IMG/VR virus record: IMGVR_UViG_2877251553_000001
Location: 1 to 64,000 of that record
Length of the DNA: 64,000 nt
Reading direction: 5' to 3' (one strand)
Source of the DNA: a virus
Taxonomy: Duplodnaviria > Heunggongvirae > Uroviricota > Caudoviricetes
Part shown: positions 6,092-10,671 of the stretch, in pieces
Numbering within the stretch: position 1 is the stretch's first letter
Layout of the letters: every line of letters starts with the position of its first letter
Translations under genes and position numbers: made by a program
Notes under the pieces: model-generated
Told to the model about the DNA's origin: nothing
What the model saw: only the letters and a program-made list of their open reading frames with translations
Database searches by the model: none

Positions 6092-6766
6092 TTAGGCCTT
6101 TATTGTGTATCTTCTTGGTTTTCCCGAGAAAATCACTGTACCAATTATAGAGCAATTACCGTTAATCTTAATGTAAGGCTCAGGCCAGTTTGGGTTTAAT
6201 GCTTTGAGATAACGCTGTGTTCCATCTTCTATCAATCGCTTGAAGGTGGTTTCGCCTGTATCGTGCATCAATGCAATAACGTCGTCACCGTGGCAGGCAG
6301 GGACTTCGGGATCAACAAAAATCATGTCTCCAGGGCGGTACTCATCAATCATTGAATCACCAATCACCCGCAAGATATAAGTCATTTCGCCACAGGGTAC
6401 AGGGCAGGGATACGTTTCTGCTGTGCTCAAATCAACCTCAGAATAGCCAACTTCTTTCCATGCTCCGGCCTGTACCCATGATATGACAGGGACTAACGTT
6501 ATTTGTTTGTTAGTGATTGAAACATCAGGTTTTTTTGTGATGTTCGTTGTCTGGTGTTCTTGATCAAGCCATCCGACAGGCAGGTCGAAACATTTTTCGA
6601 TGTGCCGTGCCATGCTGTCACCGATATTTTTAGTAGCGCCATCCCCCATAAACCTGCTGGTTTGGGTTGGCTCGCGATCAATCATGGTGGCAAAGGATGA
6701 ATTTCCGCCAACACCATCTCTCAGTTTTCTGGCGTTAGACCGCCGGATGTCATGGATTGTTTTCAT
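6092..6766 (-). CDS. cI: CI-like phage repressor (N-terminal HTH, C-terminal LexA/S24-type autopeptidase domain)
   Basis: 224-aa ORF divergent from cro; C-terminal region (VIGDSMIDEY...GDMIFVD) resembles S24 peptidase domain. Confidence 0.8.
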   Translation of the reverse strand: MKTIHDIRRSNARKLRDGVGGNSSFATMIDREPTQTSRFMGDGATKNIGDSMARHIEKCFDLPVGWLDQEHQTTNITKKPDVSITNKQITLVPVISWVQAGAWKEVGYSEVDLSTAETYPCPVPCGEMTYILRVIGDSMIDEYRPGDMIFVDPEVPACHGDDVIALMHDTGETTFKRLIEDGTQRYLKALNPNWPEPYIKINGNCSIIGTVIFSGKPRRYTIKA

Positions 6767-8485: not shown

Positions 8486-8714
8486 TCCGTTGATCCTCAA
8501 TATTCACCGTTTACTTCAGCGTAAAAAAATATCAATTCCTACAGTTGGGCAGTGGTACACCACACCTGCAGGGCATGTTCTACGTGTTAGCCTGGTTGAC
8601 CGTGAATGCCAGAAGGTGATTTGTGAACCGCTTGGCCGTAATTACCGCGTCAGTATGCCGCTTATAGCCTTTCGCTCCGGAAAAAACATGAAGCATCTCG
8701 GAGGTGCAGCATGA
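8478..8714 (+). CDS. hypothetical small protein
   Basis: 78-aa ORF with overlapping stop/start to neighbours. Confidence 0.35.
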   Translation: MLNPLILNIHRLLQRKKISIPTVGQWYTTPAGHVLRVSLVDRECQKVICEPLGRNYRVSMPLIAFRSGKNMKHLGGAA

Positions 8715-9528
8715 GTATGGAGCTGATGGTTAAAGCGATGAAAATTCGAGTGGGTAATCCATTGCGAAAACTGGTTCTGATCAAGCTGGCTGATAATGCC
8801 AGCGATCAGGGTGAGTGCTGGCCCAGCTACCAGCATATTGCTGACCAGTGCGAGATTAGCAAACGTTCTGTGATGAATCATATTGCGGCCCTTTGTGAGT
8901 CCGGGCTGGTAAAAAAAGTCACCCGGAAAGGTGAAAAAGGTAACTCAAGTAATATCTATCTCCTTCATCTTGATGGTGCAGGAGATTCACTAGGGGGTAG
9001 TGCAAATAATTCACTATCTGGTGCAGCAAATTCACCAGGTAGTGCAGGAGTTGCACCAGGGGGTAGTGCAGGAGATTCACCCAGAACCAGTCACTCTTTT
9101 GAACCAGTCAAAGAACCAGTCAATGAACCAATAGCTGTTGGTGCATCAGTTGATGAGTCCGTGCGAGTTCGTTCAAACCGACCGGAATACTCTCCGGAGT
9201 TTGAGCAGGCATGGCTGGTATATCCCAAACGTGCTGGTGGCAATTCAAAATCTGCAGCCTTCAAAGCCTGGAAAGCCCGTTTGAATGAGGGGGTAAACCC
9301 GAAACCATGCTGGAAGGTGTGAAACGCTACGCGGGCTGGGTATCTGCGATGGGTAACAGCGGCACACAATTTGTGAAACAGGCTGTCACGTTCTTTGGTC
9401 CGGATCGTCATTTCGAAGAATCCTGGGAAGTTCCTGCGGTATCTGCAGCCAGACGCGAGGACCCGTACTTCAAAGCCAGTTACGACAACGTGGACTACAG
9501 CCAGATCCCGGCAGGATTCAGGGGGTGA
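8711..9528 (+). CDS. replication initiation protein (O-like, N-terminal HTH); reading frame broken by a -1 shift at a G5 run near 9286-9290
   Basis: N-terminus resembles phage replication-protein HTH domain; contains iteron-like repeats; two ORF-track pieces (8711-9322, 9307-9528) merge if one G is restored. Confidence 0.55.
8985..9090 (+). repeat. iteron-like direct repeats inside the replication gene (putative origin)
   Basis: Repeated GGTAGTGCAGGAGATTCAC / GGTGCAGCAAATTCACC-type units encoding GGSA..S repeats. Confidence 0.45.
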
Positions 9529-9530
9529 TC

Positions 9531-10025
9531 ATGAGTCTTTTGAATGAAGTTCAGAAATACATTGAAGCCCATCCGGGGTGTACTTCCGGAGACATTGCGG
9601 ATGCTTTTGCAGGTTACTCACGGCAGCGCGTTCTGCAGTCAGCAAGCAAGTTACGTCAGAGTGGGCGTGTGGCTCACCGTTGTGAAGGGGATACACGCAG
9701 ACATTTCCCGCGCCAGACAAAGATATCGCAGGAGGCGGAACCGCAACCAGTTCGTGAAACCAGACCTGTGCGCAATTTCTATGTCGGCACTAACGATCCC
9801 CGGGTGATTTTGTGCCTGACCCGCCAGGCGGAAGAACTGGAGTCGAGGGGCTTATACCGTCGTGCTGCAACCGTGTGGATGGCGGCATTCCGTGAAAGCC
9901 ACTCCCAGCCAGAGCGAAACAATTTTCTTGCGCGTCGTGAGCGGTGTTTACGGAAAAGCAGCAAGCGCGCTGTACCGGGTGATGAGTGGTATCTGTCAGG
10001 GAATTACGTGGGGCTTAATGAGTAA
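9531..10025 (+). CDS. hypothetical protein
   Basis: 165-aa ORF (MSLLNEVQKYIEAHPG...); stop overlaps next start (ATGAGTAA). Confidence 0.45.
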   Translation: MSLLNEVQKYIEAHPGCTSGDIADAFAGYSRQRVLQSASKLRQSGRVAHRCEGDTRRHFPRQTKISQEAEPQPVRETRPVRNFYVGTNDPRVILCLTRQAEELESRGLYRRAATVWMAAFRESHSQPERNNFLARRERCLRKSSKRAVPGDEWYLSGNYVGLNE

Positions 10026-10671
10026 TAAATATTGCCAGGCGCTGGTCGAACTGCGGAACAAACCAGCCCATGAACTGAAGGAAGTGGGCGATCAGTGGCG
10101 CACGCCGGATAACATTTTCTGGGGAATTAACACCCTGTTTGGCCCGTTTGTTCTGGATCTGTTCACTGACGGTGATAACGCCAAATGTGCCGCGTATTAC
10201 ACGGCGGAAGACAACGCGCTGGCGCATGACTGGTCAGAACGTCTTGCGGAGCTTAAAGGTGCTGCCTTTGGTAATCCCCCATACAGCCGCGCCAGTCAGC
10301 ATGAGGGGCAATACATCACCGGCATGCGTTACATCATGAAACATGCCAGTGCTATGCGTGATAAAGGCGGGCGCTATGTTTTCCTGATCAAAGCTGCCAC
10401 CAGCGAAGTGTGGTGGCCGGAAGATGCAGACCATATTGCTTTTATTCGCGGGCGTATTGGTTTTGAACTGCCTGCCTGGTTTATCCCGAAAGACGAGAAG
10501 CAGGTGCCGACAGGTGCTTTCTTCGCTGGTGCTATTGCTGTTTTCGATAAGACCTGGAAGGGACCGGCAATCAGCTACATCGGGCGCGATGAACTTGAGG
10601 CATGTGGTGAGGCGTTTCTGGCGCAGGTTCGCCAGCAGGCAGAACGGCTGGTCAGGGAGATAGTGGCATGA
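10018..10671 (+). CDS. phage N6-adenine DNA methyltransferase (Dam-like, NPPY motif)
   Basis: 217-aa product from MSNKYCQAL; motif GNPPYSR; resembles phage Dam family. Confidence 0.7.
   Translation: MSNKYCQALVELRNKPAHELKEVGDQWRTPDNIFWGINTLFGPFVLDLFTDGDNAKCAAYYTAEDNALAHDWSERLAELKGAAFGNPPYSRASQHEGQYITGMRYIMKHASAMRDKGGRYVFLIKAATSEVWWPEDADHIAFIRGRIGFELPAWFIPKDEKQVPTGAFFAGAIAVFDKTWKGPAISYIGRDELEACGEAFLAQVRQQAERLVREIVA

Follow-up and report, generated by a model that had tools for sequence, protein, structure and literature searches.

A putative replication origin formed by iterons and an invariant 38-nt box inside the initiator gene of an SfV-type lambdoid prophage

Iterons inside a phage initiator gene are a textbook arrangement. 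In ori-lambda, the replication origin of phage lambda, phased inverted-repeat iterons that bind dimers and an adjacent AT-rich tract lie in the central part of the initiator gene (PMC5043065, PMC7466680). Here we describe an array of this kind in a 64-kb stretch of viral DNA (positions 1 to 64,000 of IMG/VR record IMGVR_UViG_2877251553_000001; hereafter the window), the host element of which is a near-complete lambdoid prophage. Five copies of a 15-nt repeat lie within a replication-initiator gene of the SfV orf39 or mEp460 gp43 type (8711–9528, plus strand), and the last copy abuts a nearly invariant box of 38 nt. Based on sequence comparison, we consider it likely (a probability of roughly 80%) that the five repeats are iterons bound by the protein of their own gene and that, together with the box, they form the replication origin of the prophage. 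The array as such is an ordinary feature in a family where it is not annotated; some properties described below go beyond an ordinary iteron origin.

The locus resembles lambda O and ori-lambda, including the variants of the Shiga toxin (Stx) phages 933W and P27, in several respects. The origin, putative in our case, lies in the middle of the initiator gene between the parts for a DNA-binding N-terminal domain and a C-terminal domain, and it consists of four to six dyad-symmetric direct repeats at 20–24 bp, bound (here presumably) by dimers, with a less GC-rich tract directly on the 3′ side. The iterons encode the interdomain linker, and the gene is located downstream of an immunity region of the cI/cro/cII type. 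The copy number of the iterons also varies between relatives in the lambda group, with four in lambda and six in Stx phages. In contrast, the N-domain of the window protein is of the HTH_36/DnaD_N type and not of the Phage_rep_O type, the tract is an invariant 38-nt box of about 43% GC instead of a purine-asymmetric A+T run, and the window and SfV type have a PerC-like gene in place of P. The initiator gave no match to Phage_rep_O (PF04492) even at E ≤ 1, and hhalign of the family alignment against lambda O gave a probability of only 1.4%. Therefore, we treat the resemblance to lambda O as an analogy only. The label "O-like", which the original prediction (made from the DNA letters alone) gave to the gene, is appropriate for its layout but not for its protein family.

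The nearest relatives in protein sequence are the initiators of PHROG families 270, 8540, 391, and 4617 from lambdoid and Pseudomonas phages, which share the N-domain, the array position, and the box, with iteron classes matched to the recognition helix. Most of these modules differ from the window in having another C-domain and a DnaC/IstB-like or lambda-P-like loader, whereas the window initiator is solo. Gram-positive phages possess DnaD-like or "replisome organiser" initiators (SPP1 G38P and Rep of the lactococcal P335 group) that have a DnaD_N-type winged-helix N-domain and origin repeats in the gene. The window protein differs from them in that its DnaD_N match (PF21984) is just under the cut-off (25.0 vs 27 bits) and in that the hosts of its family are Gammaproteobacteria; to our knowledge, no invariant box has been described for the Gram-positive group. 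Iteron plasmids (R6K, RK2, P1, F, and pPS10) are similar in having helix-phased initiator-binding repeats beside an unwinding element, the exact sequence of which matters (PMC5043065). However, their iterons usually bind monomers and are simple direct repeats outside the rep gene, and their initiators belong to other families. In the pIGRK origin, a family-wide "conserved region" and four 20-bp iterons are both bound by Rep (PMC6854812). This combination in pHW126 and pIGRK parallels the box and iterons described here, although the proteins are unrelated and the plasmid iterons are intergenic.

Direct reading, a repeat search, and Tandem Repeats Finder (TRF) all recovered five copies of the 15-nt core at 8976–9080 in frame 0 of the initiator gene, with the consensus GTGCA-N5-T(T/G)CAC and start-to-start distances of 24, 21, 21, and 24 nt. 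All are on the plus strand. Iteron 1 (8976–8990) is GTGCAGGAGATTCAC (GTGCA-GGAGA-TTCAC), and iteron 2 (9000–9014) is GTGCAAATAATTCAC (GTGCA-AATAA-TTCAC), which has a diverged centre and intact arms. Iteron 3 (9021–9035) is GTGCAGCAAATTCAC (GTGCA-GCAAA-TTCAC), and the inverted arms (5 + 5 nt) of iteron 4 (9042–9056), GTGCAGGAGTTGCAC (GTGCA-GGAGT-TGCAC), are perfect. Iteron 5 (9066–9080) has the same sequence as iteron 1 (GTGCAGGAGATTCAC, GTGCA-GGAGA-TTCAC) and abuts the conserved box, as does the last iteron in every homologous locus. The left outer arm is GTGCA in all five copies and the right one is TTCAC in four and TGCAC in one, with a variable central 5 nt. The array is not a random feature of the sequence: the degenerate pattern GTGCANNANNTKCAC has four exact matches in the window, all inside the array, against a shuffle expectation of 0.19, and four matches were reached in none of 100 shuffles. 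Only chance-level matches to the consensus with up to three mismatches were found elsewhere in the window, and there is thus no evidence in it for operator-type autoregulation sites.

The array corresponds to codons 89–124, between the parts coding for the N- and C-domains, and encodes the repeating peptide G(S)A(G/N)(D/N/V)S(L/P). These residues fall within a segment (91–157) that is disordered in the AlphaFold2 model. The prediction of direct repeats inside a replication gene that encode a linker is therefore borne out, and the repeat-finder check suggested with it gave a result above the shuffle background. The predicted span of 8985–9090 did capture real repeats, but its start cuts into copy 1, and the array proper is 8976–9080.

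To place the array in a family, 80 loci were fetched from one-genome-per-species collections through protein patterns outside the repeat region. The 78 loci analysed comprise 75 genome loci, the window, and two metagenome loci (L084 and L085), and the sampled hosts include Pseudomonas, Aeromonas, Shewanella, Marinomonas, Xenorhabdus, Erwinia, Enterobacter, Microbulbifer, Photobacterium, and others. A second, independent sample consisted of 120 viral contigs found through the box sequence, in which 114 arrays were scored. At least three iteron copies are present in 76 of the 78 loci, usually four or five, and the array starts at about codon 88–98 in most of them. The spacing is 21–24 nt in 249 of 256 intervals. 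One copy departs from the reading frame of the others in 33 of the 78 loci as a result of spacings of 23 and 22 nt, which add up to 45 nt, and the viral sample likewise has mixed-frame arrays (36 of 114). An out-of-frame copy, GTAGTGCAGGAGATTCAC, is read as VVQEIH instead of GSAGDS (GVVQEIHQG vs GSAGDSPG in context).

Agreement between the copies of an array is highest in the left arm (0.89–1.00), followed by the right arm (0.75–0.99) and the centre (0.66–0.85), and shows no 3-nt periodicity. In 61 of the 78 loci, four or five of the five outer-arm positions of the last iteron are symmetric, as compared with about 2% of random 15-mers. Because out-of-frame copies keep their DNA, the arms are conserved, and the spacing is held, these comparisons indicate that selection acts on the DNA of the repeats and not on the peptide; an explanation at the peptide level cannot produce the patterns of frame, symmetry, and conservation. 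The frame-hopping iterons are a clean natural demonstration of selection at the DNA level, which goes beyond an ordinary iteron origin.

The box, CCCAGAACCAGTCACTCTTTTGAACCAGTCAAAGAACC (9080–9117, plus strand), encodes PRTSHSFEPV(K/N)EP within the predicted disordered segment and abuts the last iteron in every locus. It is conserved from Escherichia coli to Pseudomonas, Shewanella, Marinomonas, and Xenorhabdus (L004–L083 and L089–L208), and the conservation stops sharply after 38 nt. In the viral sample, the N-domain is encoded upstream of the box and in frame in 114 of the 120 occurrences; of the remaining six, five are at contig edges and one is in a gene with a frameshift. In the 75 genome loci, whose retrieval by protein patterns was unbiased towards the box, departures from the consensus box codon are synonymous in 7 cases and non-synonymous in 189. 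The codons are frozen for Arg (AGA in 75 of the 75 loci with Arg), for two Ser residues (AGT in 77/77 and TCT in 72/72), and for two Glu residues (GAA in 76/76 and 73/73), whereas at 43 N-domain residues of equal conservation these genes draw on the full range of synonymous codons. The mean third-position entropy is about 0 bits for the first eight box codons and 0.24 bits for all well-conserved box codons, compared with 1.26 bits for the N-domain. The Arg codon that is fixed in the box, AGA, is a rare one.

In the multi-locus meta-profile, the mean GC fraction is 0.43 in the box vs 0.60 in the iterons, and 0.45 vs 0.61 in hosts of about 59% GC. A search for a strong A+T tract in the window itself found none, with a GC minimum of about 0.43, and the dip is clear only in the meta-profile. 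The AT-rich tract that was expected next to the iterons is therefore present as a relatively AT-rich element directly on the 3′ side, but with about 43% GC it is a specific conserved box and not a generic AT run. Judged from these alignments, the box is a sequence-specific conserved element. By-eye comparison, the only one made, revealed no convincing match to the DnaA-box, IHF, or Fis consensus in the box. Decamer repeats of GAACCAGTCA occupy 9084–9134 (plus strand), with copies at 9084, 9101, and 9113 (spacings of 17 and 12 nt) and a degenerate copy, GAACCAATAG, at 9125. These repeats share sequence with the box and run past its 3′ edge, and 2–4 such decamers are found per box.

The near-invariance of the box across several orders of Gammaproteobacteria, within a coding region, also exceeds what an ordinary iteron origin shows, and the box is the part of the system that may be new. 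We tentatively propose, at somewhat less than even odds, that the box acts in unwinding or loading as a sequence-specific element, shared widely among gammaproteobacterial phage initiators, whatever their iteron class, C-domain, or loader. Under this proposal it is conceivable, with a similar reservation, that the box DNA, possibly as melted single strands, is read by the initiator, through its near-invariant first ~47 residues, or by a conserved host replication protein, which would set the point of opening and helicase entry. As to the protein, 33 of the first 47 alignment columns of the N-domain are at least 90% identical across hosts, iteron classes, and C-domains, out of 43 such columns in the whole N-domain. 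So high a degree of conservation is uncommon in phage proteins. This invariant surface may contact an equally invariant partner, for example, the box or a host protein.

By its profile matches, the initiator, 272 amino acids (aa) when intact, belongs to the HTH_36/DnaD_N-type phage initiators. The N-terminal part gives a match to Pfam HTH_36 (PF13730) with an E-value of 1.1e-11 (44.8 bits; cut-off 25), and the intact protein matches PHROG 270, "replication initiation protein", with 1.7e-88. Separate PHROG families described as "replication initiation O-like" match the N-terminal half, and aa 145–272 match families labelled "DnaD-like helicase loader" and "primosomal protein". The winged-helix domain for DNA binding at the N-terminus (aa 1–88; 8711–8974, plus strand) has its predicted recognition helix near ISKRSVMNH (aa ~49–57). 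In the AlphaFold2 model, residues 1–90 form four helices and then a beta-hairpin, as in a winged helix, with a predicted local distance difference test (pLDDT) score of 80–93, and residues ~160–216 form a small helical domain (helices at 162–214) after the disordered segment. A Foldseek search of the model against the PDB gave weak generic winged-helix matches only (best E 0.02), among which were the N-domain of DnaD (2v79) and the winged helix of Orc1/Cdc6, and matched nothing to the C-domain. A sequence search of solved structures gave insignificant HTH matches only (best E 0.23). There is no Pfam match to Rep_3, the family of WH1-WH2 plasmid initiators, and the model has one winged helix followed by the disordered linker. 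The initiator has roughly 5,400 homologues; those with ~87–99% identity are 242–302 aa long, and their length differences are mostly whole repeat units.

The iterons fall into classes that accompany different recognition helices. The helices ISKRSVMNH and ISRRSVINH are found with GTGCA-N5-T(T/G)CAC, as in the window, and ISKRSVMRH and MSKRSAMRH with GTGAC-N5-GTCAC. The helix (G/S/A)RSTVK.H is paired with GGGGC(A/G)G…, DRSTVR(K/R)H with TGTAGGCCCAGAAAGCAC, CSKSAVR.H with TATGCCGTCAGATGGCAC, and IGKRTVISH with GTGCAAATGCTGCAC. The Mantel correlation with iteron distance is 0.66 for the recognition helix and 0.24 for residues 1–46, and none of 2000 permutations was as high in either case, in a statistic that ignores shared ancestry. 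We regard the covariation as supporting evidence and not as proof. This apparent code between recognition helix and iteron is another property that goes beyond an ordinary iteron origin.

The genes that follow the initiator point to replication. Among 77 homologous loci, the gene immediately downstream encodes a DnaC/IstB-like AAA+ protein in 31 and a lambda-P-like protein in 11; one DnaB helicase and one Toprim-plus-AAA protein resembling a primase-helicase were also found. A 43-kb circular element of Shewanella has an annotated "replication protein P" after the initiator. Judged from these neighbours, the family context is a classical initiator-plus-loader module. The window and SfV type is a "solo" initiator, which has its own C-terminal domain and is followed not by a loader gene but by a PerC-like gene and then Dam. 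Because phages with the same solo-initiator arrangement are viable, the host must supply helicase loading.

On the reading of the array and box as an origin, the initiator would be expressed by early rightward transcription from the immunity region. Dimers of its N-terminal winged helix would bind each dyad-symmetric iteron, with its 5-nt arms and 5-nt centre. Since about two helical turns separate the sites, the proteins bound to them would be located on one face of the DNA and would form a higher-order complex like the O-some of lambda. Such a complex would destabilise the adjoining less GC-rich, sequence-specific box, and the C-domain, tethered by the disordered linker that the iterons themselves encode, would bring in the host DnaB helicase. 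DnaB recruitment would proceed through the phage DnaC-like or P-like loader in the relatives and without a phage loader in the SfV and window type.

The original suggestion of an iteron origin is thus supported by the conservation of out-of-frame DNA, the phasing, the dyads, the covariation with the helix, the adjoining AT-richer box, and the loader neighbours in relatives. Several points weigh against it. The initiator has no detectable sequence relationship with lambda O. The AT-richness next to the iterons is only moderate (43% GC), with no classical A+T run, and a hairpin or ssi-type structure in the box was rejected by the single-strand fold (z = −0.11). The window and SfV type has no helicase-loader gene after the initiator, which leaves the step of helicase recruitment unexplained, and the covariation statistics ignore phylogeny. 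The records of SfV, mEp460, and Stx2a_1447 annotate no origin at the array. Literature searches, with incomplete coverage, gave no experimental origin mapping in this phage group; within the same coverage, this origin was found nowhere described, also when its DNA and peptide sequences themselves were searched for.

Among the alternatives, the least improbable one, though still unlikely, is that the repeats do bind the initiator but have a mainly regulatory role, such as autorepression or a roadblock, titration for copy control and incompatibility, or superinfection exclusion, with unwinding elsewhere. All evidence for protein binding fits this explanation equally well, plasmid iterons serve both initiation and control (PMC5043065), and the copy number is free to vary among close relatives. 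However, the array abuts an invariant, relatively AT-rich box at a fixed position in all ~190 loci, which together with the helicase-loader neighbours gives the layout of the lambda origin. The window has no iteron-like sites near promoters elsewhere, and the regions of SfV, mEp460, and Stx2a_1447 that were read have no other replication gene or candidate origin annotated. It is less probable still that the repeats are a slippage-prone tandem repeat that merely encodes a flexible Gly/Ser/Ala linker and has no function as DNA. The predicted disorder of the segment, the in-frame position of all five window copies, and the variation of unit number among close relatives, as slippage would give, are what this explanation expects. 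It is largely refuted by the roughly one-third of homologous loci with an out-of-frame unit, in which the DNA is kept and the peptide changed. In addition, the conservation within arrays follows the dyad arms and not the codon positions, the repeat sequence tracks the recognition helix, and the spacing is held at 21–24 nt.

Two further explanations appear even a little more remote. One of them is dual coding or programmed frameshifting, in which the +1 frame (…VVQEIHPEPVTLLNQSKNQSMNQ*; open reading frame (ORF) 9000–9134) would yield a regulator consisting of the N-domain only and both frames would constrain the DNA. In the window, the +1 frame does read without a stop across the array and box, a frameshift makes some natural alleles end in this frame (L037, L031, and L155), and in-frame truncated Rep regulators are found in plasmids, namely RepR′ of pIGRK and pi30.5 of R6K (PMC6854812). 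No slippery heptamer was seen, however, and the position of the +1 stop is not conserved between loci, with L037 stopping 8 codons before the window. The frameshifted alleles are rare and lesion-like, and these three are probably lesions; phasing, dyad symmetry, and helix covariation would also be left unexplained. Equally remote is the idea that the box is kept mainly as a recombination joint for swapping modules of N-domain plus iterons onto other C-domains and loaders. Mosaic junctions do occur at the box, as in P0062 and P0072, in which the sequence upstream of the box is unlike that of SfV and the sequence downstream almost matches it; the Pseudomonas homologues share residues 1–145 only, and the downstream partners differ widely. 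The benefit of recombination alone is nevertheless a weak force that is unlikely to hold 38 nt nearly constant, at a synonymous to non-synonymous ratio of 7:189, across several orders of Gammaproteobacteria, and a mechanistic role is suggested by the sharp AT dip and by the constant register between the box and the last iteron. The roles of joint and origin are compatible with each other.

In the window, the initiator gene itself is interrupted. Alignment with SfV orf39, mEp460 gp43, and the "O" gene of Stx2a_1447 (819 nt each) revealed a 1-nt deletion in a C run, which reads CCC at 9298–9300 (plus strand) and CCCC in intact alleles. The resulting frameshift truncates the initiator to 203 aa and divides the gene into ORFs 8711–9322 and 9307–9528; the small helical C-terminal domain (aa ~160–272 of the intact protein; 9188–9528, plus strand) is no longer read in frame from 9298 on. 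A product of exactly these 203 aa is recorded from one contig only, and the run is intact in the best matches among complete E. coli genomes (502 nt aligned to a 501-nt query). Either a private mutation has inactivated the gene, or the missing base is a homopolymer sequencing error. The cis element is unaffected, but unless the deletion is a sequencing error, the prophage is probably unable to fire the origin without an intact initiator of the same specificity in trans. Some E. coli genomes have fusion proteins of HTH_36 and RusA (275–297 aa; P0047–P0050 and P0076), in which the first ~70–80% of the initiator is present at 99–100% identity. These fusions seem to arise by deletion in degraded prophages.

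Upstream of the initiator lie a cI-type repressor gene (6092–6766, minus strand), a Cro/YdaS-like gene, CII (CP76), an Ash-family gene, and a 78-aa ORF. It is followed by the PerC-like gene, Dam methylase, RusA, a KilA-N protein, and a 331-aa ORF (11876–12871), which is the positional counterpart of a DUF968/HNH-type gene annotated in related phages. The PerC-like gene (9525–10025; Pfam PerC, 9.9e-10), whose N-terminal part is MarR-like according to PHROG, is the next gene after the initiator and occupies the helicase-loader slot of the relatives. A promoter and terminator scan around the initiator gene gave nothing above shuffle expectation that bears on the array. Dam (ending at 10671) overlaps rusA (10668–11057) in the window, where SfV, mEp460, and Stx2a_1447 have a 327-nt LexA-like gene (SfV orf42) in between; its absence reflects either mosaicism or a deletion. 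The similarity to SfV begins at 1399 and takes in the SfV integrase region, and a tRNA-Thr (CGT) gene (1369–1444) lies at this left edge. This position is consistent with integration of the prophage at the tRNA-Thr gene.

The replication region is 97–98% identical in DNA to those of the isolated phages SfV, mEp460, and Ayreon and of Stx2c and Stx2a prophages, and PhiR55_1 shares the replication module at the same level. The whole window is ~97% identical over large parts to the plaque-forming phages PhiR55_1, PhiR40_1, and mEp460. The module was found in 954 of 5,426 complete E. coli genomes, and it is also present in Stx2c and some Stx2a phages, in the Shigella serotype-converting phage SfV, and in many prophages of Pseudomonas, Aeromonas, Shewanella, and Xenorhabdus. 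In the plasmid collection, no small plasmid using the unit as its replicon was found; the matches are phage-sized circles or chromosomal records only and therefore provide no evidence for an independent replicon. Circular "plasmid" records of 38–45 kb (NZ_CP148393.1, CP080634.1, and others) carry the initiator without plasmid replicon typing, and an E. coli circular record among the "plasmid" deposits is a complete lambdoid phage genome. Such phage-sized records may represent phage that has been excised or induced, or a phage-plasmid state.

Stx2 output in O157 strains correlates with the type of phage replication protein (PMC4645166). If the origin and what determines its specificity were located, it could be tested directly how a solo initiator recruits the host helicase with no phage-encoded loader, and compatibility and cross-activation between co-resident prophages could be explained. 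The matched pairs of initiator and iteron would then offer a natural set for orthogonal replicons. The box is an unusually clear case of selection at the nucleic-acid level in a coding region and a handle on the poorly understood step of origin opening. If the proposed role of the box is true, it would be a portable, "universal" unwinding or loading module embedded in coding sequence, and the pairs of iteron and helix would be a readable specificity code for orthogonal origins.

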